DNA of 11,987 bases, taken from positions 1 to 11,987 of IMG/VR virus record IMGVR_UViG_2778261502_000005; one strand, 5' to 3'. This stretch comes from a virus. Its lineage: Duplodnaviria > Heunggongvirae > Uroviricota > Caudoviricetes. Both the position numbers and the translations under genes were made by a program. This document shows positions 1 through 11,987 of this stretch, in pieces. Under the pieces are notes generated by a model. That model made no database searches, had not been told where the DNA came from, and was given only the letters and a program-made list of their open reading frames with translations. The first letter of the stretch is position 1; every line of letters begins with the position of its first letter.

Positions 1-516
1 ATGAAATTTAAAAAATGTCTTCTGCCTGTAGCAATGTTAGCGTCATTCACTCTGGCAGGATGCCAGTCAAATGCTGACGATCATGCCGCCGATGTTTATC
101 AAACCGATCAACTGAATACCAAACAAGAAACTAAAACCGTTAATATTATTTCCATTCTTCCCGCAAAAGTTGCCGTAGACAACTCCCAAAATAAACGGAA
201 CGCACAAGCCTTCGGCGCGCTTATTGGCGCAGTCGCTGGCGGTGTTATCGGCCACAACGTCGGTTCTGGCAGCAATTCCGGAACGACGGCAGGGGCAGTT
301 GGCGGCGGAGCTGTAGGCGCGGCAGCGGGTTCTATGGTGAATGATAAAACCTTAGTGGAAGGTGTTTCTTTAACGTATAAGGAAGGCACCAAAGTGTATA
401 CCTCCACCCAGGTGGGTAAAGAGTGCCAGTTTACGACAGGTTTAGCCGTTGTTATTACCACGACGTATAACGAAACGCGTATTCAGCCAAATACCAAATG
501 TCCTGAAAAGAGCTAA
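1..516 (+). CDS. Outer-membrane lipoprotein with a glycine-zipper region (SlyB/PCP-like), 171 aa
   Basis: ATG at window position 1. N-terminal signal peptide with lipobox L-A-G-C (MLASFTLAGCQS). Central Gly/Ala-rich run (GALIGAVAGGVIGHNVGSGSNSGTTAGAVGGGAVGAAAG) typical of glycine-zipper lipoproteins. Family assignment is from memory of the motif pattern, not alignment. Confidence 0.7.
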   Translation: MKFKKCLLPVAMLASFTLAGCQSNADDHAADVYQTDQLNTKQETKTVNIISILPAKVAVDNSQNKRNAQAFGALIGAVAGGVIGHNVGSGSNSGTTAGAVGGGAVGAAAGSMVNDKTLVEGVSLTYKEGTKVYTSTQVGKECQFTTGLAVVITTTYNETRIQPNTKCPEKS

Positions 517-531
517 TAATCAGGAGGAGTC

Positions 532-1071
532 ATGAAGAAAGTTTTTCTTTGCGCCATCTTGGCCTCCTTAAGCTATCCGGCTATCGCCTCATCATTGCAG
601 GATCAACTCTCGGCTGTCGCAGAAGCGGAACAGCAAGGTAAAAATGAAGAGCAAAAGCAGCATGATGAATGGGTCGCGGAGCGCAACAGGGAAATCCAGC
701 AAGAGAAGCAACGTCGCGCAAATGCCCAGGCCGCCGCTAACAAAAGAGCGGCAACGGCAGCAGCAAATAAGAAAGCTCGTCAGGATAAACTGGACGCCGA
801 AGCCTCTGCGGACAAAAAACGCGATCAAAGTTATGAAGATGAGCTACGCAGCTTAGAGATTCAGAAACAAAAACTGGCGCTGGCAAAAGAAGAAGCCCGC
901 GTTAAGCGAGAAAACGAATTTATCGATCAGGAACTGAAGCACAAAGCTGCGCAAACCGATGTGGTGCAATCTGAAGCTGACGCCAACAGAAATATGACTG
1001 AAGGCGGTCGCGATCTGATGAAAAGCGTGGGCAAAGCAGAAGAGAACAAATCGGACAGCTGGTTTAATTAA
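532..1071 (+). CDS. Secreted, highly charged coiled-coil-type protein of unknown function, 179 aa
   Basis: Strong SD AGGAGG 6-7 nt upstream of the ATG. Cleavable signal peptide ending AIA|SS. Lys/Glu/Gln/Ala-rich low-complexity body. Lies 15 bp after the lipoprotein, so probably co-transcribed. Confidence 0.7.
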   Translation: MKKVFLCAILASLSYPAIASSLQDQLSAVAEAEQQGKNEEQKQHDEWVAERNREIQQEKQRRANAQAAANKRAATAAANKKARQDKLDAEASADKKRDQSYEDELRSLEIQKQKLALAKEEARVKRENEFIDQELKHKAAQTDVVQSEADANRNMTEGGRDLMKSVGKAEENKSDSWFN

Positions 1072-1290: not shown

Positions 1291-1773
1291 CTATCTGGTC
1301 AGGGTGTCGTACTGTTTTTCACAGACTCTTCCGGCTTCGGCTGCCCGGTCAGCATACTCTGCCAGTTGTCTGTTTCTCTCGAGAGATTTGCTGAGCACGT
1401 CGGCAAGCAAAACTCCGGTGTCTGCGGCTGACGTCCCAGCGCCGACAATGGCGTTATACTGCCTGAGTTGCTCACGGATGGCAACGAGCTGTTGCTGCAA
1501 CCGGCCAGCGCGAGCGGCAGCATCAAGAGCATCATTGCGCGCCTGGTCGATCCTCTGTTGCGCTTTACGTTCATTGATCGCTTTCTCCTGTTCGTAGTGC
1601 TGACGAACTTTCTCATCTTCGGCTTTGCGCTCTTCCTTCGCCTGTGCATACCCGGCGTCGTACTGTCGGCTACCATGCACATTCCAGGCAACAACTCCTG
1701 ATAGAGTCAAAACAGCAAGCATCGCCACGATAACCAACTGTTTCCAGTATGCTTTTACGAATGCCAAGATCAT
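1291..1773 (-). CDS. Rz-like inner-membrane spanin (i-spanin), 160 aa
   Basis: N-terminal transmembrane anchor (LVIVAMLAVLTLSGVVAW) followed by a long charged coiled-coil region. Start overlaps the endolysin stop as ATGA (1770-1773). Last gene of the lysis cassette. Confidence 0.7.
   Translation of the reverse strand: MILAFVKAYWKQLVIVAMLAVLTLSGVVAWNVHGSRQYDAGYAQAKEERKAEDEKVRQHYEQEKAINERKAQQRIDQARNDALDAAARAGRLQQQLVAIREQLRQYNAIVGAGTSAADTGVLLADVLSKSLERNRQLAEYADRAAEAGRVCEKQYDTLTR
1299..1535 (-). CDS. Candidate Rz1-like outer-membrane lipoprotein spanin (o-spanin) embedded in the +1 frame of Rz, 78 aa
   Basis: Internal ATG-ATG at 1535/1532 in the alternate frame of Rz. Short signal peptide with lipobox LALAGC, then a Ser/Pro-containing mature part. 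Weak SD (AGG) upstream. An embedded o-spanin is the standard Rz/Rz1 arrangement. Confidence 0.4.
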   Translation of the reverse strand: MMLLMLPLALAGCSNSSLPSVSNSGSITPLSALGRQPQTPEFCLPTCSANLSRETDNWQSMLTGQPKPEESVKNSTTP

Positions 1774-2399
1774 ATCGCCAGCACCTTACTGGCAGTGATG
1801 TATCGCTCACGCCTGTCGTCGATGCCGTTCCGGCCACCATTGATAATCAGAGTTACACGTGCAATATCGCCGGTATACTTCATGCAGCCTTTGCTGGAGA
1901 AAAACCACGCCGCGCTACGAGCCGCATATTCGTCCTGAGCCAGCAGTTCAGGACTCTCCAGCAGGTCAACCTTCAGACCGTTTCCACAGTCACGATAGTT
2001 ATTCAAACCGGTAATCTGGATAAGTCCGCGCCCACGGTAATTCCAGCCATCGCCGGGAGCATTGTTCCCCATGCGTTTGCTGTACACCAGATTTGCGATC
2101 GCGCGCTGGCGCTCAAGTGACAATGGTGGTTCGCCTGCGCGTCGCCCCAATACGTTGGCCTGTCCCTGAGTGAGACGCCCAGCCCGAACGAAGTTAACCA
2201 GTCCGCTGACGCTGTAGTTGAAATTCTCCTGCAACCGAGTGAAGCCCACAGACTCATGCCCGACCTGAGCAATAAACATTGCCTGATCTTCGGTTTTGCT
2301 GATACCAAACTCTTTCATCGCAGAAATTATATGCGAGAACCAGCGGTCGGCCAGCGACTCGCTGATACCAGCAGCTCGCTGAAATTGTTTAATCTCCAT
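1770..2399 (-). CDS. Endolysin, glycoside hydrolase family 19 (chitinase-like lysozyme) type, 209 aa
   Basis: Contains NYRGRGLIQITGLNNY, which matches the GH19 catalytic-region signature as I recall it, and a downstream AAWFF motif. No signal peptide. Sits between the holin-like genes and Rz with overlapping start and stop codons. Confidence 0.8.
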   Translation of the reverse strand: MEIKQFQRAAGISESLADRWFSHIISAMKEFGISKTEDQAMFIAQVGHESVGFTRLQENFNYSVSGLVNFVRAGRLTQGQANVLGRRAGEPPLSLERQRAIANLVYSKRMGNNAPGDGWNYRGRGLIQITGLNNYRDCGNGLKVDLLESPELLAQDEYAARSAAWFFSSKGCMKYTGDIARVTLIINGGRNGIDDRRERYITASKVLAI

Positions 2400-2697
2400 G
2401 TTTAGACCTCGCTAATTTGAAAATCTGAACGACGTTACCGCGTGTTTTAATAACCGCAGCAAGCATGACTACGTTGATAATGACCTCAGATAAATCCACT
2501 GCCATTGGCATGCTGAACCAGATTGCATAGGCGACACGAACCGGAATACTAGCCGCAGCAACAATCAGGAAATAAGCAAGCCAGCCACCCCATCGTCGGT
2601 GTTGAGATCCATTGCGCCGGAAAGTAACAACACGAATAGCTATGCCAGTACAAATAACTGCATTGGTGATAAGCAAAAAAATCTCATGCGTTACCAT
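2389..2697 (-). CDS. Holin-like small membrane protein (second of two), 102 aa
   Basis: Three predicted hydrophobic helices and a charged C-terminal tail (KTRGNVVQIFKLARSKHGD). SD GGGAG about 8 nt upstream of the ATG. Overlaps the upstream holin by 14 nt and the endolysin by 11 nt. Confidence 0.55.
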   Translation of the reverse strand: MVTHEIFLLITNAVICTGIAIRVVTFRRNGSQHRRWGGWLAYFLIVAAASIPVRVAYAIWFSMPMAVDLSEVIINVVMLAAVIKTRGNVVQIFKLARSKHGD

Positions 2698-3088
2698 CGT
2701 CTTTTCTCCCAGGAATCAACTCGCGTGGATTATCAGAACGATGATAGAGCCATATACCAATACGAACGGCGACAATTGCCGACACGAACGCACCTGTAGA
2801 AAATGCAATCCCTTTCTCGAATGAGTCCTGCGTGATGGTAGGGATCAGGCTGGCTACACCGATAAGGATGGATGCTGTAGGTTTGTAAAAGAGAAGGCCG
2901 CAGAGGAAGCTGAGCATCGACAGAAGAACACGACGACGGATTGGGTATTCTACTGCAGAGGTAACAAAAATTACCGCACCAGCCAAAGATCCCAAAGCGA
3001 CCTCTGGAGGAACTCCTGCTATCACCGACACTAAAGAACCAACGCTAAGCCACTGATTTAAAGATTCATTGGTTAACTGTATTGACAT
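2684..3088 (-). CDS. Holin-like membrane protein (first gene of the lysis cassette), about 134 aa
   Basis: Three to four hydrophobic segments. Start placed at the ATG at 3088, which has a GGTGG SD-like sequence 5 nt upstream. In-frame alternative starts exist at ATG 3100 and GTG 3118 (M-V-V-F-M spacing), so a dual-start holin/antiholin pair is possible but not demonstrated. Confidence 0.55.
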   Translation of the reverse strand: MSIQLTNESLNQWLSVGSLVSVIAGVPPEVALGSLAGAVIFVTSAVEYPIRRRVLLSMLSFLCGLLFYKPTASILIGVASLIPTITQDSFEKGIAFSTGAFVSAIVAVRIGIWLYHRSDNPRELIPGRKDDGNA

Positions 3089-3384
3089 AAAAACCACCAT
3101 TTTTGAGCATAATGACACTCTTAGCTAGTGAGTTCATTATACACAGCGAACCTTATATGGATTAGTGGTGGTTTATTTTAACGCTTAAAAAGCATACGCT
3201 GCTAATAGCACAACGCCTTGCAATCAGATGCAAACCTTTGTCCACTACTAATCTCAATGAAATAGATCAGCAAAGCATTTGACTCTCCCCGTTGGATGAT
3301 GTGTGAAGTGCTGACTAGAATGCTGCAAATATGATATGATGTTTGGCATCCATTGACTTTAATTTGTTATATAGATAAATACAT

Positions 3385-4386
3385 ATGAAAGAAATAAAAT
3401 CACTAACAGGTGTTAGAGGAATAGCTGCAATTTACGTAGTTCTTTATCACTTTACAAACGCAAAAATACCTTTTCTATGGAACGGATATCTAGCAGTAGA
3501 TCTTTTTTTCGTATTAAGCGGATTTATAATGTGTATGGTATACTCTAAAAATTTCACACAAGAAATATCTGTTAGTGAATTTGGAAAATTTATTTGGCAT
3601 AGATTTTCAAGAATATATCCATTATATTTATTTGTTTTATTATTAACAATAGTTATTCAAGTAAATCAATCATCGCCACCATCAACTCAAAATCTCATAA
3701 TAAATTTTATGATGTGGCAAAATTTATTTAATAATGGAATGGTTGGTGCATCATGGTCTGTTAGCGTTGAATTAATTGCGTATTTAATATTTCCGCCTCT
3801 AATATTCTTATTAACCGATAAGAAATGGTTATGTTTCATAATAATTTACACATCAATGTCAATGTTGTTTTATATTACAACAATTGACAACCCTGGTAGT
3901 AGCGGGCCACTTGATATATATAGCGGAATCCCTTCAATAATGAGAGGTGTTTGTGGTTTCACTATAGGTTGTTGTTGCTATGTTTTATTTGATAAATACA
4001 AACACACATTTAATGTTATTGCATATACTCAAGATATTTTGGCGGCTTTAGTAATAGCGTGTTTACTAACAAAAGGAATGGATGTTGTTTTTGTTATTTT
4101 GACCGGATTATATATATCATCGCTTTATTATAGCACTGGAATAACAGGATGGTTACTATCAACAAAACCTATTCATTATTTGGGGGAGTTGTCTTTTTCA
4201 ATTTACCTTACGCACCTGATGATACAAAGGCATTTTATATTTGAAGTGAATGCAATAACTGAATGGTTAAATGTTAGTTATATAAATGATGTGTTTGTTA
4301 TGGTTATATCTACACTGATGTTTTCTATATTAACATTTCATTTAGTAGAAAAGCCAAGCAGAAATATTCTAAGAAAACTAAAATAA
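3385..4386 (+). CDS. Acyltransferase-3 family integral-membrane O-acyltransferase (Oac-like O-antigen acetylase candidate), 333 aa
   Basis: N-terminal RGIAAIYVVLYHF and DLFFVLSGF motifs characteristic of acyltransferase-3 (R-x10-H and V-x2-FF-x-S-G). About ten hydrophobic helices. Very AT-rich (about 31% GC in the first 100 nt). No SD. Convergent with the tailspike gene. Confidence 0.8.
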   Translation: MKEIKSLTGVRGIAAIYVVLYHFTNAKIPFLWNGYLAVDLFFVLSGFIMCMVYSKNFTQEISVSEFGKFIWHRFSRIYPLYLFVLLLTIVIQVNQSSPPSTQNLIINFMMWQNLFNNGMVGASWSVSVELIAYLIFPPLIFLLTDKKWLCFIIIYTSMSMLFYITTIDNPGSSGPLDIYSGIPSIMRGVCGFTIGCCCYVLFDKYKHTFNVIAYTQDILAALVIACLLTKGMDVVFVILTGLYISSLYYSTGITGWLLSTKPIHYLGELSFSIYLTHLMIQRHFIFEVNAITEWLNVSYINDVFVMVISTLMFSILTFHLVEKPSRNILRKLK

Positions 4387-4434: not shown

Positions 4435-6864
4435 TTAAGGATTACTTACCAACCCCTTCCATCCTCCACTTCCTGCGCTTGTGCATTGATAGAAGTATCC
4501 TGTGTTTTTGTCAACATATAATCCTCCTGGCTTACCATTAATAACTCCGTAAGGAGTTCCTGAACCGCTTATCAATGAAATACCATGTATAAAAGAAACA
4601 TTCTGACTATATGTTCCTGTCCCTGGAGCTCTGGCCATATCATTAATAGCACAAAGCCATGATCCAGCTGTTGATATGTTTGATATATTATCATCATCAT
4701 TTGGGACAATGGCTATCATTGGTATTGTTGCGTTTTTACCATAACCTCTAATATTACTTATTCCTCTTTGAACTCTTGAGTCTGTCAAATCTCTAATCAA
4801 TGGAACACTTACGCTATCTTCACAGATAAAGTTATTTATCGTGTAGTCATCACAGCTTGAATCAGTTTCTATATGAACCAATCCCTCGGCATCAGTATCG
4901 GAAGCTCCTGAGTATCCACCATCCCAAAAAATGCCATCTATGTTTATATATCTTGCTCCGCCGCTAATATATATATTACCAGCACCTCCGATAACCCTTA
5001 ATTCATTTATATAAATACCGTAGAACCCTAAAATTTCAACAACCCTTGCATGGTTTGATGTGTATTTTGAGTTGTTTGCGTTTTCAACCGTACAACTTGC
5101 TATAACGGAATACCTGGCATTTTGATGCCGCCCCGATGGTATTGATGCTGTATTAATGTGCTCAATTTGGAATCCATGAACACAATTTTTTGCATAACAT
5201 CTATAAAATTTAACACATCTTGCGGGCATTGTTGTTGAGTGGCCCTTCTGCTGAAATCCAGTCATTACCCCATCCGCATAACAATCCATCACGGTAACAT
5301 TATAACTTCCTTCATCAATTTCAATACCATGCTGATTCCCTGTCCATACCATATCAGGGTCATCGTTCCATACTCGGCAGCGGTTAATTACAATATCACT
5401 GCTATTATGCGTTGTAATGAGATCGTCAAGTTGACTGTTTTGAACAAAAGTGTCTTCAACAACAATGTCATAGCTACCACCAACTGCATTATTATTAATA
5501 TTCCCATCATCGAAATAATACCCAGCACAAATATCTATACCATGCTGCAAACCACGCTTACAGTAAACGTTTTTGATGGAACTGTGGCTGACAGTAGAAA
5601 ATAAAATAGTAGTCCCCTGTGTGGCATCCATCCATGTTTCTGACGGATTTCTTGCTCGATTGTTAGCATCTACACATAAGTCTTCTATGTGGATAGAAGT
5701 ATCGTAGTTTGTCCTGAATACCCTGTATTCATAAAGCTCGTTCTGAATACAGTTTTCAATTATCGGCATTGTTGGTAGTGCTAGAATAACGGTCTTAAAT
5801 TTCCCCACCCCACGCAATCTAACGTAAGATGGTACTTTCAGTGCAGAGTTAATCCCGTAAGTACCTTCAGAAAGAATAAGCTCTTTCACCGTTGCCATTT
5901 TTGCCGCTTGCAGTGCTTTGTTCAATTTATCATGACAATCCGTTACTCCATCAGGAACAATTCCGTAATAATCAGCATACACTTCATTGCAGATTCTTTT
6001 CCAACGCTTTCCACCAGGCGTCACAATTATCATTCCATCATCATCAATTGTTGTTAAATCAGTGCTATCATAATAAAAATACCCACCTCCAATACCAGAG
6101 CCTAAAGTATGCTCTAATACATATATTCTTTGCTGTAAATTTGTTGGTTCTATATTGCGTAAATTAGAAATGGAAGCACAATTGCCAATAAGTTTTAAGC
6201 CATCACTTGCTGCTAGCTGAATCATTACATCGGATGCAGATCCAGACTGTGGAAGGACCATAATAGGATTACCATTGTCATCCATCGCTACCACTTTGTT
6301 TTTACGATTCTCAGCATCAGGCAAACTTGGTATTGGCTCAGGCGTTCTAAGAGTACGACCTAGATTTGTATTAGCAAGTTTATCGACATAATTTTTAGTT
6401 GCCGCATCCTGTGGGCGCACAGGGTCTCGCAGATTTCTGATGTAGTTGTTAATAGCGTCATAATAATTCGACACAAAAGATGGCTTACGAAGAGCAAGTG
6501 AAAACCAACTTCTTACCTGCTGGATCAGCATCGTTAGCTTATCAAACGCGTCTTCGTGCACCTCAGCAAAAAACTTACCCTGGTTTCTAAGATCTGTTTC
6601 CTGAGTAACCGATAGTTCTCGCAATATGGAAATCTGATAACCATTAGCCAGTGCCTTCGACAGAATTACATTGCCACCGTTATACCCTCCCGCACCAGTG
6701 ACTGTGTAATCAGTATCAAGATCCAGCACAGTGATATTCTCGTCAAGGTCAATCACCTGCACTACTAAATCAGATTTATTGAAAACCCTAAAGGTATAAG
6801 GGAATGATGTCGTAACGCCGTTACCGGTGTATTCGTTGTGGTTAACTTCGGTTGAGACCGTCAT
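4435..6864 (-). CDS. Tailspike/tail fibre with T7-tail-fibre-like N-terminal anchor domain and C-terminal beta-helix (pectate-lyase-like) domain; probable polysaccharide depolymerase, 809 aa
   Basis: N-terminus (YTGNGVTTSFPYTF...DLVVQV...DYTVT...IRNLRDPVRPQDAATKNYVDKL) follows the conserved pattern of the T7 gp17 N-terminal domain. The remainder is rich in Gly/Asn/Ser/Thr/Ile as expected for a right-handed beta-helix. SD GGAG 7 nt upstream of the ATG. GC drops after roughly the first 170 codons. Confidence 0.8.
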   Translation of the reverse strand: MTVSTEVNHNEYTGNGVTTSFPYTFRVFNKSDLVVQVIDLDENITVLDLDTDYTVTGAGGYNGGNVILSKALANGYQISILRELSVTQETDLRNQGKFFAEVHEDAFDKLTMLIQQVRSWFSLALRKPSFVSNYYDAINNYIRNLRDPVRPQDAATKNYVDKLANTNLGRTLRTPEPIPSLPDAENRKNKVVAMDDNGNPIMVLPQSGSASDVMIQLAASDGLKLIGNCASISNLRNIEPTNLQQRIYVLEHTLGSGIGGGYFYYDSTDLTTIDDDGMIIVTPGGKRWKRICNEVYADYYGIVPDGVTDCHDKLNKALQAAKMATVKELILSEGTYGINSALKVPSYVRLRGVGKFKTVILALPTMPIIENCIQNELYEYRVFRTNYDTSIHIEDLCVDANNRARNPSETWMDATQGTTILFSTVSHSSIKNVYCKRGLQHGIDICAGYYFDDGNINNNAVGGSYDIVVEDTFVQNSQLDDLITTHNSSDIVINRCRVWNDDPDMVWTGNQHGIEIDEGSYNVTVMDCYADGVMTGFQQKGHSTTMPARCVKFYRCYAKNCVHGFQIEHINTASIPSGRHQNARYSVIASCTVENANNSKYTSNHARVVEILGFYGIYINELRVIGGAGNIYISGGARYINIDGIFWDGGYSGASDTDAEGLVHIETDSSCDDYTINNFICEDSVSVPLIRDLTDSRVQRGISNIRGYGKNATIPMIAIVPNDDDNISNISTAGSWLCAINDMARAPGTGTYSQNVSFIHGISLISGSGTPYGVINGKPGGLYVDKNTGYFYQCTSAGSGGWKGLVSNP

Positions 6865-6968
6865 GTTAAATCTCCAGATAGTCGCAGCACCCGTTGCGCC
6901 GCATATCCGATTATTCTATTACCCGAAAAACCATATATGGATAGATAGACCATGAATACAAACAGATA

Positions 6969-6983
6969 TTACCTTTCAGGTGA
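6969..6983. promoter_or_regulatory. Operator-like palindrome TTACC-N5-GGTGA upstream of the tailspike gene
   Basis: TTACCtttcaGGTGA, a 9/10 match to the TTACC-N5-GGTAA motif found around the repressor gene. Lies about 105 bp upstream of the tailspike ATG, next to a TTGCAA hexamer on the minus strand. Confidence 0.4.
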
Positions 6984-7012
6984 TTTGCAAAACGTGCTGG
7001 ATAGCAAACAAA

Positions 7013-7708
7013 TTATTTGATACTGTATAAATATACAGTTATTGCATGGAGAAGATAAGATGCAGCAGTATCACTATCCACTGGAAGACGGATTTTCCGA
7101 AGAAAGTCATCTGATGGCTGCCATTGTTCATGCATGACAAATTTGCCTAATTGCCCTGGCCCACCAGGAGGAACAAAGTTATTCATCACGGCGTTGTTTG
7201 CGCCGGGGTCATGATGCACAGAATCCCCGTTTTTTGTCCTGCTCTCCCTCTCTTGGTTAAATGACTGGTTATATGACTGGTTCTGGATCCCGTTTTTGGG
7301 ATCATTCAACATCCCGTTTTTGGGATCATTCAACATCCCGTTTTTGGGTATATTCCCGTTTTCGGGTATATTCCCGTTTTCGGGTATATTCCCGTTTTCG
7401 GGTTCATTGCCCCCCTCCCGGTTGCCTTTAATGTTCCCGTTTTTGGTTATATTAAGAGAGAAAACCCGCACTCTTTTTGTCGCTCCCTTTCTATCTCCGG
7501 TATCTGAAATAAGCCCCATTTTCATGAGCGATATAAGCCCGGCCTGCACGGTTTTTTTATTCAGGCAAGTGTCTTTAACGAGGCGTTCTATGCTGGGGTA
7601 GCAGAGGTTATATTCATCGGCTCTGTCAGCCATCGAGAGCAGTATGAGCTTTAATGATGAGCTACCTGGATCTGTCTCCCAGGCCCAATCTGTTGCATGT
7701 CTGCTCAT
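7013..7708 (-). CDS. Phage replication initiator, O-like, with N-terminal winged-HTH domain and internal repeat region, 231 aa
   Basis: N-terminal region (LKLILLSMADRADEYNLCYPSIERLVKDTCLNKKTVQAGLISLMKMGLISD) has the pattern of phage and plasmid replication-initiator HTH domains. The central part is a tandem peptide repeat (ENGNIP x3, NDPKNGML x2) encoded by iteron-like DNA repeats. Starts 13 nt after the upstream gene. Confidence 0.75.
   Translation of the reverse strand: MSRHATDWAWETDPGSSSLKLILLSMADRADEYNLCYPSIERLVKDTCLNKKTVQAGLISLMKMGLISDTGDRKGATKRVRVFSLNITKNGNIKGNREGGNEPENGNIPENGNIPENGNIPKNGMLNDPKNGMLNDPKNGIQNQSYNQSFNQERESRTKNGDSVHHDPGANNAVMNNFVPPGGPGQLGKFVMHEQWQPSDDFLRKIRLPVDSDTAASYLLHAITVYLYSIK
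7021..7040. promoter_or_regulatory. Candidate LexA (SOS) box
   Basis: TACTGTATAAATATACAGTT matches the consensus TACTGTATATATATACAGTA at 18 of 20 positions, with perfect CTGT-N8-ACAG arms and an all-A/T spacer. It lies within the last 9 codons of the O-like gene, about 157 bp upstream of the tailspike ATG. Confidence 0.55.
7289..7453. repeat. Iteron-like direct repeats (candidate replication origin) inside the O-like gene
   Basis: Seven tandem units sharing the core CCCGTTTT(T/C)GG(G/T): 24-bp units at 7289 and 7313; 18-bp units at 7337, 7355, 7373, 7391 and 7436. The core CCCGAAAACGGG is itself palindromic. A further 12-bp tandem (ATGACTGGTT-AT/CT) lies at 7261-7284. Confidence 0.65.
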
Positions 7709-7723
7709 GATTAATCTCCGCTA

Positions 7724-7924
7724 TCAGCTTGAGTGTTGTGGGGAGGAATTAATCATGATCTGCTTAATCTCTGCCCTGATGCGACGGTTTGATTCCATGG
7801 TGCACTCAACACAGTGTCCGTTGTAAACCCAGCGTTCACTGTCATGTCCGTGCTTACATGGTTTTCCGGTGTAGTAGCGTTTAAGTCCGCGCTTTGCGGC
7901 ATCAATACGTGTAATGATTTCCAT
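7724..7924 (-). CDS. Small Cys/His-rich (putative zinc-binding) protein in the cII-equivalent position, 66 aa
   Basis: Start placed at the internal ATG at 7924 (MEIITRI...), with an AGGG SD-like sequence upstream; the longer ORF beginning at 7987 adds a hydrophobic leader. Motif C-x-H-x-H-x13-H-C-x2-C. Function not recognisable from sequence. Confidence 0.45.
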   Translation of the reverse strand: MEIITRIDAAKRGLKRYYTGKPCKHGHDSERWVYNGHCVECTMESNRRIRAEIKQIMINSSPQHSS

Positions 7925-8004
7925 GGTAAGCCCTGTTATTAGTATTGGGATTACGGTTATTTTGTGCTGACACAAAAAAAAGATCAACCATATTTGGTTT
8001 TTTA

Positions 8005-8019
8005 TTACCTTTGAGGTAC
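8005..8019. promoter_or_regulatory. Operator-like palindrome TTACC-N5-GGTAC between the cro-side terminator and the Cys/His gene
   Basis: TTACCtttgaGGTAC, a 9/10 match to the shared motif. Confidence 0.4.
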
Positions 8020-8029
8020 GGATAGATAT

Positions 8030-8053
8030 GAAAAGACCGCCGGATGGCGGTCT
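8030..8053 (-). terminator. tR1-like rho-independent terminator downstream of the Cro-like gene
   Basis: GC-rich 8-bp stem AGACCGCC (8034-8041), loop GGAT, GGCGGTCT (8046-8053). On the minus strand it is followed by TTTTCAT. Sits between the Cro-like stop (8075) and the next gene. Confidence 0.5.
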
Positions 8054-8074
8054 ACAGAGGGTTGTGGCTGGATA

Positions 8075-8305
8075 TCATGAGTAGAAGAAGTATGCCAGTT
8101 CTGCTTTTGAGCGCAGCCATTGTCTTGTTTTACAGGCTTTAAAAAGCCCATTCATCAATACTTTACCTGGCATTTTGCGCTTACCTGTTAAGTGAGTCTG
8201 GATATAGTGACTCGTCGTTCCGGCTTCCTGTGCGAAGGCTTCACGCTCATCCGGAGTAAGTGCAAGCCAGTGCTTTTTGAAATCGAAATGTCCGTTATCG
8301 CTCAT
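8075..8305 (-). CDS. Cro-like small HTH regulator (DicC/YdaS-like), 76 aa
   Basis: Small basic protein divergently transcribed from the repressor gene. Putative HTH around EAFAQEAGTTSHYIQTHLTG. The position matches lambda cro. Family call is tentative. Confidence 0.6.
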   Translation of the reverse strand: MSDNGHFDFKKHWLALTPDEREAFAQEAGTTSHYIQTHLTGKRKMPGKVLMNGLFKACKTRQWLRSKAELAYFFYS

Positions 8306-8341
8306 AGCTATTGCCTGATATTTATTTCAGATAATAAATAT

Positions 8342-8404
8342 TCACCTATAAGGTAACAAAAATCAAGGATAGTTACCCATGAGGTGCATTTACCTGTTGG
8401 GTAA
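8342..8404. promoter_or_regulatory. OR-like operator cluster of three TTACC-N5-GGTAA-type palindromes in the divergent Cro-like/repressor promoter region
   Basis: Sites at 8342-8356 (TCACCtataaGGTAA), 8373-8387 (TTACCcatgaGGTGC) and 8390-8404 (TTACCtgttgGGTAA, perfect). An AT-rich 9-6-9 palindrome ATATTTATT-N6-AATAAATAT lies at 8318-8341. Confidence 0.6.
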
Positions 8405-8459
8405 TATTGCTTTAAATTGAATCATCTACTGATTCATATATGAGGCGATTTTCCAGAAA

Positions 8460-9044
8460 ATGAAAAGTATCCAGGACGTCCGCAGGCAAAATCTCAACGA
8501 CTTGATCGACCGTGAATTCAATGGTGTTCAGACGCGGATGGCAGAAAAACTTGGAACTCAGGCAAATCTGGTAAACCGCTGGGCTCTTGGCAAGAAGGTT
8601 ATCGGCGACCAGGTTGCGCGAAAAATTGAAGCTGCCGCCAATAAACCCCGTAATTGGCTTGATATCGATCGCTCGCTTTCTCAGGAAGGTTTTCAGCCTG
8701 TCGGCCCGAGTGATATAGGTCAGCTGGCTGCTCACAACCTGGAACGCTGGATGAGCGAAAGCCGCGACCTTTCAACACAGGGAAAACTTCACCGCGCATC
8801 CGGCGTCGCCCAGGTGACAATCAGCCGCCTGTTAAACAATGAGGTCAGCGTTTCCATTTCCACCCTGGAGAATGTTGCATCCGCATTCGGGCGTCACGGC
8901 TATGAATTACTGATTCACCCGCACGACCCTGCGACTATCAACTATGACCGCTCGCGCTACGCATTGTTACCCGAAACAGAGAAGGCAAAGATCGAAAGTT
9001 ACATTGAATTTGTCATCAGCCAGAACGAAAAAAACAAACAATAA
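8460..9044 (+). CDS. Phage repressor with two tandem XRE-type HTH domains and no S24 peptidase domain, 194 aa
   Basis: First HTH around QTRMAEKLGTQANLVNRWALGKK, second around LHRASGVAQVTISRLLNNEV. No Ala-Gly/Ser-Lys autocleavage module is recognisable. The nearest SD-like GAGG is about 14 nt upstream of the ATG. Flanked by operator palindromes on both sides. Confidence 0.8.
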   Translation: MKSIQDVRRQNLNDLIDREFNGVQTRMAEKLGTQANLVNRWALGKKVIGDQVARKIEAAANKPRNWLDIDRSLSQEGFQPVGPSDIGQLAAHNLERWMSESRDLSTQGKLHRASGVAQVTISRLLNNEVSVSISTLENVASAFGRHGYELLIHPHDPATINYDRSRYALLPETEKAKIESYIEFVISQNEKNKQ

Positions 9045-9065
9045 AATCATATTTTTCAGTAAGTA

Positions 9066-9090
9066 AGCCGCCTTCTGGCGGCTTTTTTAT
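9066..9090 (+). terminator. Rho-independent terminator after the repressor gene
   Basis: AGCCGCC (9066-9072), loop TTCT, GGCGGCT (9077-9083), followed by TTTTTTATT. Confidence 0.75.
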
Positions 9091-9100
9091 TGCCAGATAG

Positions 9101-9123
9101 ATTACCTTACGGGTAATTTTTTT
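9101..9123 (+). terminator. Second hairpin with T-tract; also a perfect copy of the operator palindrome (OL-like distal site)
   Basis: ATTACC-ttacg-GGTAAT followed by TTTTTTT. The core TTACCttacgGGTAA lies at 9102-9116. Confidence 0.5.
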
Positions 9124-9135
9124 AACTCATATCTA

Positions 9136-9178
9136 TTGACACCAAACCAAATAAGCATAATTATTACCTCAACGGTAA
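9136..9178 (+). promoter_or_regulatory. pL-like early promoter with overlapping operator, driving the small ORF, methyltransferase and phosphatase
   Basis: Consensus -35 TTGACA (9136-9141), 17-bp spacer, -10 candidate AATTAT (9159-9164). Perfect operator TTACCtcaacGGTAA (9164-9178) overlaps the -10 and the predicted transcription start. SD GAGGT at 9185-9189. Confidence 0.55.
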
Positions 9179-9197
9179 CAGACCGAGGTAACAAGTT

Positions 9198-9347
9198 ATG
9201 CAGTGGAAAATCATCAACGGTTGGTACTGCGTTACTGCATGCGGATTCATGAGCTGGAAGTTCCGCACCTTACAGGAAGGTATTAAGTGGGCTTTCGTCA
9301 GCAAAGAAGCTCGCGATGTGGCCAACGATAACGAGATATGGGAGTAG
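9198..9347 (+). CDS. Small ORF of unknown function (first gene of the early operon), 49 aa
   Basis: ATG with SD GAGGT 8 nt upstream. Trp- and Cys-containing (MQWKIINGWYCVTACGF...). Absent from the ORF track because of its length. Coding status unverified. Confidence 0.4.
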   Translation: MQWKIINGWYCVTACGFMSWKFRTLQEGIKWAFVSKEARDVANDNEIWE

Positions 9348-9421
9348 GTTAGCAAATGAGTGAATTGTCAATCATCGAAATCACACCAGACATAGCGGCA
9401 TAGGATGTTGTGGGGTGGTTT

Positions 9422-10072
9422 ATGACTAAGAAATACACACTAATCTATGCAGATCCACCCTGGGTATACCGGGACAAAGCCGCAGATGGTAATCGCGGTG
9501 CCGGTTTTAAATATCCGGTTATGAGTGTGCTGGATATCTGCCGCCTTCCTGTGTGGGATTTGGCCGATGAAAACTGTCTGTTGGCCATGTGGTGGGTGCC
9601 AACACAACCACTCGAAGCACTAAAAGTTGTTGAAGCCTGGGGATTCCGTCTGATGACGATGAAGGGCTTCACGTGGATAAAATGTGGTAGTCGACAACCA
9701 GATAAACTGGTTATGGGTATGGGACACATGACTCGCGCCAATAGTGAAGATTGCCTGTTTGCAGTAAAGGGAAAACTACCTCCGCGCATTAATGCAGGGA
9801 TCGTTCAGTCATTTACCGCACCGCGGCTTGAGCATTCAAGAAAACCAGATGTCGTTCGTGAAAAACTTGTGCAATTGTTAGGCGATGTTTCTCGCATTGA
9901 ACTGTTCGCCCGCCAGTCGTCTCATGGCTTCGATGTTTGGGGTAATCAGTGCGAAGACCCGGCAGTGCAACTACACCCTGGATACGCGTTGGATATTGGC
10001 GGATTAACAAATGCATTCAGCAATGCTCCGGTGTCACCAATAGACAACCAGGGGCGGGAGCGTGCAGCATGA
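9422..10072 (+). CDS. MT-A70 family N6-adenine DNA methyltransferase, 216 aa
   Basis: Catalytic DPPW motif in [10 protein letters not shown]. Start placed at the ATG at 9422, with a GGGGTGG SD-like sequence upstream; the ORF track uses GTG at 9410. Stop overlaps the phosphatase start as ATGA. Confidence 0.8.
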
Positions 10073-10728
10073 ACCTATATCAACGCATCAATGGCGCTGA
10101 CTGGTGCAATATCTTCGTCGTCGGCGATCTGCATGGGTGCTACACGCTGCTGATGAACGAACTCGACAAAGTTTCATTCGACCCGGCGCGCGATTTACTT
10201 ATTTCCGTTGGTGACCTTGTTGACCGCGGCGCTGAAAACGTCGAATGCCTGGATTTGATTACTATGCCGTGGTTCCGAGCTGTTCGTGGCAACCATGAGC
10301 AGATGATGCTGGATGCACTGGTCAACGGCGGAAGTTTCGGACATTGGATGTCAAACGGCGGTGGATGGTGGCACCAACTTGATTCTGAGCAGGATGTGCA
10401 ACTCAAATACCTTCTGCCAAAGATTACCAACCTCCCGATGATTATCGAACTGGTTACCGGCAATAAGAAGGTCGTCATCTGTCACGCAGACTACCCGCAC
10501 AACGAATACGCATTCGATAAGCCAGTACCAGAAGAAATGGTGATATGGAATCGTGAACGGGTTAGCGACGCGCAGGACGGTATTGTCTCGGAGATAACCG
10601 GTGCCGATTTGTTCATCTTCGGTCATACGCCAGCACATCACCCACTGGTGTATGCAAACCAGATGTACATCGACACCGGCGCAGTGTTCTGCGGAAATCT
10701 GACGCATACCAAAGTCCAGGAAGGATAG
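10069..10728 (+). CDS. Lambda-type serine/threonine protein phosphatase (metallophosphoesterase, PrpA/PrpB-like), 219 aa
   Basis: Signature motifs GDLHG, GDLVDRG and GNHE. The ATG at 10069 overlaps the methyltransferase stop. The longer track ORF from 9949 is an out-of-context N-terminal extension. Confidence 0.85.
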
Positions 10729-10730
10729 AA

Positions 10731-11987
10731 TTATTTATTACTGTCTTCCATCCACTTCTCAAACTTCGACGGGGAGAACGGAATCAGATCCGTATGCTCC
10801 CCGTTAATCCAGGAATCAATCATATCGGCCCACTGCTGCAACATGTAGGCGCGCTGTCTGGCGTATTCCGCTTTGTTATATACGGCGCGCACACCTTTCT
10901 GCTCATGTGCCAGAGCCTTTTCAATCCAGTCTGAAGGATAACCAGCCTCATGCAACAACGTACTTGCTGTACGGCGCATATCGTGTACGGTGAAGTCCTG
11001 AATATGCTCACCATCTTCATTTATTATTTTCACCGTTCTGTCGATCAGAGAGTTCAGCGCGGCATTAGATAATGGCTTCCGGAAATTGTAACGACCAGGA
11101 ACCAGATATTCACTTCCACCAGCGCACATCTGCAACCCAACCAATATATCCTGTGCCTGTTTAGGCAGGTAAATAACGTGCGCCCGGCTTCCCTTCATGC
11201 GGTCTGAAGGAATTGTCCATGTCCATTTTTTAAAATCTATTTCATCCCACGTTGCATTGGTGAATTCGCCTTTACGAACCATAGTGATAAGCACCAGCTT
11301 TAAAGCCATTTTCATAGTGCCCATAGCACCAATGGCATCCAGCGTGCGGAAGAACAGGCCAATTTCTTCTGGTGTCAGTGTTCGCTCTCGTGGTTTAAAT
11401 ATGGCGATAGACGAAGGTTTAATGTCAGCCGCAGGATTAAACAAACCATGACCACGGTCATTGGCATGACGGTATACGCTGCTGATGATCTCCCTGGCCT
11501 GCACTGCTGTTGCCCGGCCACCGCGTTCGACAATCCGGTCACACAAATCACGAACCATCGATGTGGTAATTTCAGCCATCATTTTATTGCCAAGAACCGG
11601 AAGTATGTCACGGTCGATCACCGCCTGTTTCATTGCGCGGGTACTGTCAGCCAGGATGACGTGTTTCATATAACTGTCGGTATGTACCGCAAACGTCTCG
11701 GCACCACGAATCTTTTTGATACCGTCACGTTTAGCCGCAGCCGGTGACTGGCCTGCTTTAAGCAGCTTCTTTGCAGCAATCAGTTCTTCTCGCGCTTCTG
11801 CCAGGCTGATACCGTCACGCCCATACTGCCCGATTACCAGCGTTTCGCGGCGACCGTTGATACGGTAGTCGTAGCGAAACGAGACCGTGCCTGACGTAAG
11901 CACAGCTACATACAGCCCGTCACGATCGGAGACCTTGTACAGTTTGTCCTGCGGCTTGAGGTTTTTTAATTTTGTATCGGTAAGCAC
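10731..11987 (-). CDS. int: Tyrosine recombinase, phage integrase with N-terminal arm-binding domain, 418 aa
   Basis: N-terminus MLTDTKLKNLKP...DGLYVAV is typical of arm-type-binding integrase N-termini. C-terminal catalytic H-x-x-R (HDMRRT) and tyrosine in RAVYNKAEY. First codon is GTG at the window edge, so the true start may lie just outside. The 3' end is 2 bp from the phosphatase stop. Confidence 0.85.
   Translation of the reverse strand: MLTDTKLKNLKPQDKLYKVSDRDGLYVAVLTSGTVSFRYDYRINGRRETLVIGQYGRDGISLAEAREELIAAKKLLKAGQSPAAAKRDGIKKIRGAETFAVHTDSYMKHVILADSTRAMKQAVIDRDILPVLGNKMMAEITTSMVRDLCDRIVERGGRATAVQAREIISSVYRHANDRGHGLFNPAADIKPSSIAIFKPRERTLTPEEIGLFFRTLDAIGAMGTMKMALKLVLITMVRKGEFTNATWDEIDFKKWTWTIPSDRMKGSRAHVIYLPKQAQDILVGLQMCAGGSEYLVPGRYNFRKPLSNAALNSLIDRTVKIINEDGEHIQDFTVHDMRRTASTLLHEAGYPSDWIEKALAHEQKGVRAVYNKAEYARQRAYMLQQWADMIDSWINGEHTDLIPFSPSKFEKWMEDSNK

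Follow-up and report, generated by a model that had tools for sequence, protein, structure and literature searches.

A probable lambda-type replication origin inside the truncated initiator gene of a phiV10-like prophage remnant

We identified an array of seven short repeats inside the replication initiator gene of a viral DNA stretch of 11,987 nucleotides (hereafter, the window). This array is, with high probability, the iteron set of a lambda-type origin that a phiV10-like temperate phage (Uetakevirus) carries within its initiator gene, the copy in the window having been killed by a deletion. The window consists of Escherichia coli chromosomal DNA (yfgH, yfgI) and a deleted phiV10-like prophage, the integrase of which adjoins guaA. 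Phages of the phiV10 group infect E. coli O157 and convert its serotype. An initial annotation, made from the sequence of the window, had proposed that the repeats are probably a replication origin placed, lambda-style, inside an O-like gene; this proposal gains comparative support from the position of the repeats, the reading frames in which they are read, the match between repeat type and initiator clade, and the loader or helicase genes downstream.

Motifs of the CCC(G/A)AAAACGGG type, identified as matches to the pattern CCCRAAAACGGG with at most one mismatch, occur seven times at 7289-7447, all on the minus strand, compared to 0.07 expected from shuffled sequences, and none of 200 shuffles reached this count (Table 1). 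Tandem Repeats Finder (TRF) delineated a 24-bp unit (2.6 copies at 7287-7348, 100% matches), an 18-bp unit (3.8 copies at 7336-7403, 98% matches) and a 12-bp unit (2.4 copies at 7254-7282), and the start-to-start spacing of the iterons is 24, 24, 18, 18, 18 and 45 bp. The units encode the peptides PENGNI (three times) and PKNGMLND/PKNGIQ (three times). Seven non-random units, thus, lie within the initiator gene and encode the linker of its product, as the initial annotation had stated, but their description is to be revised. The exact CCCGAAAACGGG core, previously ascribed to all seven units, is present in only three, another three starting with CCCA and one with ACCA; it is not a true palindrome but an inverted repeat, CCCG/CGGG, flanking a non-symmetric AAAA; and the tandem periodicity of 18 or 24 bp holds for six units, the seventh being set apart by a G+C-rich spacer. 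A counterpart of this first, isolated iteron, CCCAAAAACGG(G/A), was found in phages GF-2, H20, AB1, AP22, PPompW and EPP-1. The degenerate distal unit was considered as an eighth iteron and rejected, its key position being variable among close relatives. A half-site, TACCCGAAAA, at 6920-6929, upstream of the tailspike gene, is an isolated partial match that we dismissed as a chance occurrence. No Rfam matches were obtained anywhere in the window.

Table 1. Coordinates of the features discussed, numbered from the first letter of the window
Feature	Position	Strand	Evidence or remark
Tailspike gene, pectate-lyase-like fold	4435-6864	-	Downstream neighbour of the initiator
Truncated initiator ORF, 231 codons	7013-7708	-	HTH_36 1.9e-10; phrog_1032 3e-77
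Remnant of a small gene, about the first 12-14 codons native	7060-7137	+	Alignment
Deletion junction, microhomology TTT(T)CCGAA	7093-7101	.	Four-way alignment
Stub of DnaT-like C-terminal domain, aa 190-205	7093-7141	-	17 of 69 profile positions
Degenerate distal unit ACAAAAAACGGG, doubtful iteron	7226-7237	-	Residue varies in close relatives, TK[N/S/T/A/I]G
CAGAAC box (7280-7285), then 12-bp direct repeat x2.4 (CAGTCATATAAC / CAGTCATTTAAC)	7254-7285	-	TRF; candidate unwinding region
Three iterons CCCAAAAACGGG	7289-7300, 7313-7324, 7337-7348	-	Last two intervals 24 bp; TRF, motif search
Three iterons CCCGAAAACGGG, 18-bp spacing	7355-7366, 7373-7384, 7391-7402	-	TRF, motif search
G+C-rich 33-bp spacer between first iteron and tandem array	7403-7435	-	GC 0.58-0.60
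First, isolated iteron ACCAAAAACGGG	7436-7447	-	Motif search
N-terminal domain, aa 1-86, putative origin-binding	7451-7708	-	HTH_36 at aa 18-67 (7508-7657)

The repeats follow an N-terminal HTH_36 domain (PF13730; E = 1.9e-10, aa 18-67) and occupy the linker-coding stretch between two Pfam domains. The second of these, a DnaT-like domain (PF17948), is represented in the window only by positions 1-17 of the 69-position profile (E = 0.05), compared to positions 1-66 in phiV10 gp43 (1.1e-15), and the ORF spans positions 1-220 of 281 of phrog_1032, annotated "replication initiation protein" (3e-77). By its profile matches, the window protein is a truncated member of the HTH_36 + DnaT-domain phage initiators (PF13730 + PF17948; phrog_1032). 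The N-terminal domain shows 43-58% identity in an alignment with seven distant homologues. When the native 205 aa were used as a protein query, the best 120 matches were all near-identical E. coli proteins; the distant relatives were gathered by tblastn against phage genomes. The initial annotation had named Phage_rep_O and HTH_36 as families for HMM comparison, and only the latter matched: for Phage_rep_O (PF04492), there was no match to the window protein even at E <= 1, whereas lambda O scored 5.7e-36 in the same run, and a profile comparison of the N-terminal domain with that of lambda O yielded an hhalign probability of 3%. The protein does match PHROGs families named "replication initiation O-like" (phrog_391, 2.8e-19). 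The initial annotation had missed that the gene is a truncated fusion, in which codons 1-205 (7093/4-7708) are native, with 17 of the 69 DnaT-like positions, and codons 206-231 (7013-7092) form a tail from foreign sequence, these last 26 codons being antisense of another gene.

The junction was mapped by a four-way alignment. The window is 96-98% identical to phages of the phiV10 group rightwards from 7093, which is also the leftward limit of homology to phiV10 gp43. On the right of the junction, the sequence corresponds to the initiator gene, and on the left, to the DNA upstream of the tailspike gene, so that codon 205 of the initiator is joined to the latter. The small gene on the plus strand was cut as well; its intact 85-aa homologue matches phrog_450 and, weakly, an anti-repressor family. 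These alignments indicate that an illegitimate deletion at 3-9 bp of microhomology took the last ~70 codons of the initiator gene, the loader gene and ~20 kb of late genes up to the tailspike gene. The window has, thus, lost the loader gene, the structural genes and all but a stub of the DnaT-like domain; the prophage also lacks a second, 2.7-kb early block, and the iterons, the N-terminal domain, and the repressor and Cro-like genes are retained. The junction is absent from all 5,426 complete E. coli genomes, and the exact protein sequence is present on one contig only.

This deletion accounts for the gene order that had been found puzzling. As stated in the initial annotation, the next gene downstream of the initiator is the tailspike gene, and no loader, helicase (DnaB) or primase gene is present within the window. 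The tailspike gene adjoins the initiator solely because of the deletion, and the loader is missing due to the same event that cut the initiator gene short. Of the two explanations offered initially, truncation of the replication module is, therefore, borne out. In phiV10, gp43 is a 275-aa protein with HTH_36 and DnaT domains, and its stop codon overlaps gp44, a member of the Phage_lambda_P family (1.5e-56); this module is annotated as "replication initiation protein / DnaT family" and "replication protein P". A P-family loader is encoded immediately downstream of the initiator also in GF-2 and MD8, and a DnaB-like helicase in AB1, AP22, Ab105-2phi and PseuP_224. Thus, the question raised initially about the partners of HTH_36 initiators can be answered: a loader or helicase gene directly follows the initiator in most intact relatives. 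In Vibrio phage H20, neither type of gene is annotated next to the initiator.

Compared with the window, phiV10 gp43/gp44 is 96.9% identical at the DNA level over 7093-9344 and has the same N-terminal domain, iteron types and 12-bp repeats. However, phiV10 carries two units of the 18-bp type, three of the 24-bp type and three 12-bp repeats, as opposed to 3 + 3 and 2.4 in the window, and encodes the full protein and the loader, both of which the window lacks. Among 81 IMG/VR loci together with phiV10 and phiv142-3, the initiators are 263-295 aa long, except for three shorter outliers of 114, 153 and 182 aa. Across 74 distinct gene sequences, iteron copy number varies from 4 to 9, so the exact number is unconstrained. 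Within the window's own clade, the units are nearly identical and all in one reading frame, a state for which recent slippage alone could suffice. We gave no weight to within-clade conservation at synonymous sites, given that most of the core positions were fixed by the search pattern itself.

An alternative is that the repeats are only a slippage-prone, low-complexity, N/G/P/E/K-rich peptide linker between two folded domains, without any function at the DNA level. The location between two Pfam domains, the free variation of copy number in close relatives (18-bp units x1-4, 24-bp units x1-5) and the common reading frame of all units in the window's clade are consistent with such a linker. The distant homologues argue against it. 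The survey covered 16 such genes, which represent roughly a dozen lineages, and CCC-(A/T-rich)-GGG arrays were found at nt ~260-460 of the gene in all homologues with 42-57% identity in the N-terminal domain, that is, in phages of Edwardsiella (2), Vibrio, Acinetobacter (3), E. coli (PPompW) and Burkholderia, and in one metagenomic podovirus. Two or three reading frames are used for the motif in GF-2, PPompW, EPP-1, Bcep176 and EBPR podovirus 1, so that one DNA motif yields unrelated peptides (e.g. TQKRES vs TPKNG), and spacings of 17, 22, 25 and 26 nt, none of them a multiple of three, occur among these phages. The motif is also kept across hosts of very different G+C content. In contrast, the corresponding gene segment of initiators with only 28-35% identity (Stx2a_F403, SF10, PseuP_224, Aeromonas 51, MD8) contains a repeat of another type, CCCCGCAG..CTGC; the repeat sequence, thus, changes with the DNA-binding domain and is replaced exactly where that domain belongs to a different clade. 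The proven iterons of lambda behave likewise, the four annotated ones falling into three reading frames. A single DNA motif read in several frames, at the same gene position and with a clade-specific sequence, points to selection on DNA, and hence to iterons rather than a peptide linker, which we consider very improbable. The initial annotation had held that its reading would fall if homologues showed a peptide linker without DNA-level conservation; in five homologue lineages, the motif is conserved as DNA. Additional evidence comes from GF-2, a natural chimera in which an N-terminal domain and iterons of the window's type are followed by a C-terminal half that is 62% identical to lambda O and then by a P gene, the fusion point lying just past the repeats.

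Location of iterons inside the initiator gene is known for lambda, P22 and L (PMC8022706, PMC7466680), and the parallel drawn initially between the window and the lambda O gene holds. In both, inverted repeats are located mid-gene, between the N-terminal DNA-binding and the C-terminal partner-binding domains; the lambda core, TCCCTCAAAACGAGGGA, is alike in design to (A/T)(C/T)CC(G/A)AAAACGGGA of the window; the units are similarly spaced, at about 18-24 bp; and the P loader gene directly follows the initiator in lambda, as it does in the window's intact relatives. Furthermore, the lambda junction after the last iteron, GGGGGACACAAAAGAC, is similar to that of GF-2 and Bcep176, GGGACACAGAA(T/C). 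The differences are substantial, too. Lambda O has a Phage_rep_O N-terminal domain, without significant profile relationship to the HTH_36 domain of the window, and its own C-terminal domain in place of the DnaT-like one; the iterons of the window, with a core of 12-14 bp and 6-7 copies (4-9 in relatives), are shorter and more numerous than the 18-bp iterons of lambda; and the window copy, unlike lambda, is truncated and lacks a loader. Gene 18 of P22 and that of phage L each contain their own set of repeats, interpreted as the origin, and the repeat sequence co-varies with initiator specificity (PMC8022706); in these phages, gene 12, encoding a DnaB-type helicase, takes the place of a P-type loader gene after the initiator, and the repeat sequences differ from those of the window. 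In its C-terminal domain, the intact phage initiator matches the solved C-terminal structures of E. coli DnaT (4OU6, 4OU7, 6AEP, 9ZBT) with E about 1e-20, the best at 7e-21. However, DnaT has neither a sequence-specific origin-binding domain nor iterons, and the window keeps only a stub of ~17-22 residues of this domain. In the literature, the phiV10 and epsilon15 genome papers lying outside the scope of the search, no description of this iteron type was found.

By analogy with lambda, dimers of the N-terminal HTH_36 winged-helix domain of the initiator would, in the intact phage, bind the CCC(G/A)AAAACGGG inverted repeats and assemble into an O-some-like complex, the adjoining CAGAAC box and 12-bp repeat region would open, and the DnaT-like C-terminal domain together with the downstream lambda-P-family loader would bring in the host DnaB. 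The box and the 12-bp repeats occupy the position of the A+T-rich tract of lambda. We searched for a strongly A+T-rich unwinding tract beside the iterons and found none: over about 40 bp (7254-7288), the A+T content is 60-67%, compared to 77-80% in lambda, so the unwinding site is not obvious. The CAGAAC box starts 4 nt past the 10-nt search motif, that is, 3 nt after the GGG of the last iteron, and has the same offset in 11 of 11 clade-A genes, in three reading frames. A box of this kind, C(A/G)GAA(C/T), is located after the last repeat in Stx2a_F403, SF10, PseuP_224 and MD8 as well, although these phages have iterons of another family, and it is reminiscent of the lambda junction GGGACACAAAAGA. 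We tentatively suggest, as a possibility rather than an expectation, that HTH_36-type phage origins share a second, previously undescribed element, a C(A/G)GAA(C/T) box at a fixed distance from the last iteron, followed by 2-4 phased repeats of 9-13 bp containing GAAC(C/A) (7254-7285 in the window). This element could serve for sequence-specific unwinding or for helicase entry, and could attest to common descent of these origins with ori-lambda.

Two further explanations concern the present state of the window copy. One is that it is still a working origin, the 231-aa protein recruiting host DnaB/DnaC directly without the need for a phage loader, which was the first option in the initial annotation. 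The iterons, the adjoining repeat region and the N-terminal domain are indeed intact, and at least one distant relative, the H20 phage, lacks an annotated loader or helicase next to the initiator. However, the ORF is a deletion fusion without 52 of the 69 DnaT-like positions, spanning only part of its PHROG family; the P-family loader gene overlaps the initiator stop codon in all close intact relatives, which speaks against direct recruitment; the allele is private to one assembly; and the structural genes and the 2.7-kb early block are lost. This possibility, therefore, appears extremely unlikely, and 7013-7708 alone, encoding a truncated fusion, is expected to fail as a self-replicating unit for a trivial reason.

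The other is that the iterons that remain, either alone or together with the DNA-binding stub of the initiator, form a replication-interference element that titrates or poisons the initiator of incoming phiV10-like phages and protects the host. Ectopic copies of ori-lambda or fragments of the lambda replication region reportedly inhibit the cognate phages (PMC4488673, PMC3349717), which would favor such a role, as would the joint retention of the iterons, the N-terminal domain, and the repressor and Cro-like genes, and the persistence of the initiator region in AF56 and AST205, two further remnants at this locus. However, the truncated allele occurs on a single contig, suggesting that the deletion is recent and neutral and not a state maintained by selection; the early promoter region upstream of the initiator gene is repressed; and the prophage repressor already confers immunity to homoimmune phages. 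We regard interference as very unlikely. The window copy is, as its alignment with intact relatives indicates, a dead remnant in an ordinary decayed prophage in which the origin DNA and the DNA-binding domain survive; unable to fire alone, this origin could, at most, respond when a related phage provides the proteins in trans.

To conclude, this analysis defines, at the sequence level, the probable origin of the phiV10 group and that of a wide set of HTH_36-type initiators from Edwardsiella, Vibrio, Acinetobacter and Burkholderia phages. This definition can be used for annotation, for phage-derived replicons and for predicting replication incompatibility of co-resident prophages. The initiator without a loader in the window reflects prophage decay, not new biology. 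In GF-2, the iterons and the N-terminal domain travel together, combined with a different C-terminal domain and partner gene, which is the modular rule of lambdoid phages in another initiator family.

Window positions 1–1071 comprise Escherichia coli yfgH and yfgI, and the remainder is a prophage. Its integrase gene (10731–11987) lies next to guaA both in the source contig (GCA_002233275.1 NLUV01000011.1) and in related genomes. Identity to phiV10, phiv142-3, PAS61 and other Uetakevirus phages is 96–98% over the DNA that starts at 7093 and continues to the right. The window initiator is a homolog of phiV10 gp43, a 275-aa protein annotated as 'replication initiation protein / DnaT family', with HTH_36 at aa 18–67 and DnaT at aa 188–256 (1.1e-15); the C-terminal domain of gp43 also matches solved structures of the C-terminal domain of E. 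coli DnaT (~1e-20). The gp43 stop codon is overlapped by gp44, which matches Phage_lambda_P at 1.5e-56.

The initial annotation had placed seven repeat units with a palindromic core inside the initiator gene. Tandem Repeats Finder and a motif count against shuffled sequences bore out the array: a 24-bp unit is present in 2.6 copies at 7287–7348 (100% matches), an 18-bp unit in 3.8 copies at 7336–7403 (98% matches) and a 12-bp unit in 2.4 copies at 7254–7282, and CCCRAAAACGGG, with at most one mismatch, has seven matches in the window, from 7289 to 7447 and all on the − strand, against a chance expectation of 0.07 and with 0/200 dinucleotide-preserving shuffles reaching seven. The units, three CCCGAAAACGGG, three CCCAAAAACGGG and one ACCAAAAACGGG, the last set apart from the other six by a 33-bp G+C-rich spacer, encode PENGNI three times and PKNGMLND/PKNGIQ three times in ORF 7013–7708 (−). 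Their core is not a true palindrome but an inverted repeat around a non-symmetric A4.

Layout of the probable replication origin inside the window initiator gene, listed in coding sense
Feature	Position	Strand
First iteron	7436–7447	−
G+C-rich spacer	7403–7435	−
Three iterons, 18-bp spacing	7355–7402	−
Three further iterons, last two intervals 24 bp	7289–7348	−
CAGAAC	7280–7285	−
12-bp repeats	from CAGAAC side to 7254	−
Degenerate unit, doubtful	7226–7237	−

Three GATC (Dam) sites lie within 42 bp (7286–7327) flanking the 24-bp iterons, compared with a window average of one per ~307 bp. GATC is also present in each 24-bp unit of Edwardsiella phage GF-2, and the prophage has its own MT-A70 adenine methyltransferase at 9410–10072.

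Repeat copy number changes rapidly among close relatives (81 IMG/VR loci, phiV10 and phiv142-3; full-length proteins of 263–295 aa, with three shorter outliers of 114, 153 and 182 aa), which carry 1–4 units of the 18-bp type and 1–5 of the 24-bp type, with 4–9 motif matches per gene across 74 distinct sequences. These genes are too similar to tell DNA-level from peptide-level selection; therefore, we retrieved distant relatives by a tblastn search of phage genomes and read their initiator genes individually. All examined initiators with 42–57% identity in the N-terminal domain (clade A: Edwardsiella GF-2 and EPP-1, Vibrio H20, Acinetobacter AB1, AP22 and Ab105-2phi, E. coli PPompW, Burkholderia Bcep176, and EBPR podovirus 1) carry CCC-(A/T-rich)-GGG arrays that start directly after this domain, at gene nt ~260–460. 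Five lineages read one DNA motif in different frames. For example, in PPompW and EPP-1 one copy of ACACCCAAAAACGGG is translated as TQKRES and a second as TPKNG, GF-2 obtains TQKRDD from the first copy and DPKIG from the others, and three frames are in use in Bcep176, where the units are spaced at 17 and 22 nt; the spacings in EBPR podovirus 1 are 25, 34, 33, 22 and 23 nt, and the four annotated iterons of lambda fall in three frames. Because one DNA motif is kept across different frames, constraint on a peptide linker cannot explain its conservation. Furthermore, initiators with 28–35% N-terminal domain identity (clade B: Stx2a_F403 O, SF10, PseuP_224, Aeromonas 51 and MD8) carry another repeat, CCCCGCAG-N4-CTGC, where clade A has its array. 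Thus, the repeat covaries with the DNA-binding domain, as would be expected of cognate binding sites.

The origin of lambda lies inside its initiator gene, an arrangement that the window probably shares, and the lambda iteron core TCCCTCAAAACGAGGGA resembles the window (A/T)(C/T)CC(G/A)AAAACGGGA. However, lambda O belongs to a different sequence family: the window initiator matches HTH_36, not Phage_rep_O (hhalign probability 3%), and the C-terminal domain in its family is DnaT-like. The authors of the MD8 study made brief mention of 'repeats within the O-like gene' (PMC8508860); we found no description of phiV10-type iterons in a literature search that did not extend to the two most relevant genome papers. 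The GF-2 initiator is a natural chimera, in which a window-type N-terminal domain and iterons are joined to a C-terminal half that shares 62% identity with lambda O (E = 2e-67); a lambda-P-like gene comes next. The GF-2 gene (locus L086, 2501–3343) has an HTH_36 N-terminal domain, and the crossover lies just past the repeat region. Most intact relatives have a partner gene directly downstream, of the P family in phiV10, GF-2 and MD8, or coding for a DnaB-like helicase in AB1, AP22, Ab105-2phi and PseuP_224. The N-terminal domain and its repeats act as a single module of specificity, and the C-terminal domain goes with the partner protein. By analogy with lambda (PMC7466680, PMC8022706), initiator dimers would occupy each dyad-symmetric unit, wrapping the DNA, the region adjacent to the iterons would open, and the C-terminal domain together with a P-type loader would deliver host DnaB.

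The tract past the window iterons shows no evident A+T-rich element of the classical kind, its A+T content being 60–67% versus 77–80% in the unwinding tract of lambda. A C(A/G)GAA(C/T) box is conserved there, starting 4 nt past the 10-nt last-iteron motif in 11/11 clade-A genes, where three reading frames run through it, and lying directly after the last repeat in four clade-B genes (the MD8 position was read by eye, as the automated scan mislocated its last repeat). It is followed by 2–4 GAAC(C/A)-containing repeats at 9–13 bp spacing, and the hexamer occurs only 41 times in 12.7 kb of these genes. The box may be a second origin element; alternatively, because GAAT occupies the equivalent offset in every inter-iteron spacer of the 24-bp arrays, it may belong to a longer iteron unit, of which it would form the right flank. 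The box with phased GAAC(C/A) repeats is found at window 7254–7285 and in comparison loci L087, L092, L096, L097, L098, L099 and L101, immediately past the repeat arrays of these loci, and the box is present even with the other iteron family.

In a four-way alignment, the window follows the tailspike-upstream region of the prophage in E. coli 2013C-4538 up to ~7095 (~99% identical over 6700–7101) and a phiV10-type initiator gene from 7093 on, and the two matches overlap in a short microhomology, TTT(T)CCGAA. Native initiator sequence is limited to codons 1–205, and the final 26 codons run antisense to a small + strand gene (ATG 7060) at its 5' end; the DnaT remnant covers positions 1–17 of 69 (Pfam, E = 0.05), and the protein covers positions 1–220 of 281 in phrog_1032. 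The initiator remainder and the loader were lost in this deletion, together with the remaining early-right genes and every gene for packaging, head and tail as far as the tailspike. The junction is absent from 5,426 complete E. coli genomes, and only a single contig is on record with the exact 231-aa protein. Of the two alternatives in the initial annotation, the second, a truncated replication module, therefore holds, with the truncation extending into the initiator itself.

Just upstream of the ribosome-binding site and ATG of the small + strand gene, of which only ~12–14 codons are left, is the sole LexA/SOS-box-like palindrome in the window, the perfect TACTGTATAAATATACAGTT (CTGT-N8-ACAG; 7021–7040, +). 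An intact 85-aa homolog (locus L005, 3361–3618) falls in phrog_450, with a weak match to an anti-repressor family (3e-7). The gene thus resembles an antirepressor under LexA control that would serve phiV10-type phages as their induction switch. The body of the tailspike (4435–6864, −) has no megablast-level similarity to that of phiV10, and its 5' end (~5981–7101) alone matches other prophages (87–96% identity). It adjoins, on the opposite strand, an acyltransferase gene of the O-antigen acetylase type (3385–4386, +). Serotype-conversion and receptor-recognition genes and a lysis cassette (1291–3118) were kept despite the loss of virion genes. Between the methyltransferase and integrase genes, a calcineurin-like serine/threonine phosphatase gene (9949–10728, +) replaces the DUF1382 gene of phiV10 (window 10074–10748).

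The window keeps the origin DNA and a DNA-binding stub, and the effector half and loader are gone; this origin is expected to stay inactive except where a related phage provides the proteins. Interference is one possible role of the remnant, with iterons or stub titrating the initiator of an incoming phage, as parts of the lambda work hint (PMC4488673, PMC3349717); however, our analysis yielded no support for such a role, and the rarity of the allele speaks against it.

Prophage decay accounts for the initiator without a partner, the feature that had made the locus look unusual. The ~11 kb remnant carries at least two deletions, the second of which (window 9344–9389 versus 7318–10049 of the phiV10 locus, L001) eliminated ~2.7 kb of early-left genes, including gp38, the RecE/RecT fusion, and the AlpA-like and PerC-like genes. 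At the same yfgI–guaA site, E. coli AF56 carries a prophage remnant with a separate deletion (locus L003, 7793–9192), in which the initiator is complete and P is cut and joined to a tail-fibre gene. This independent event suggests that the structural block has been lost repeatedly in this prophage family.
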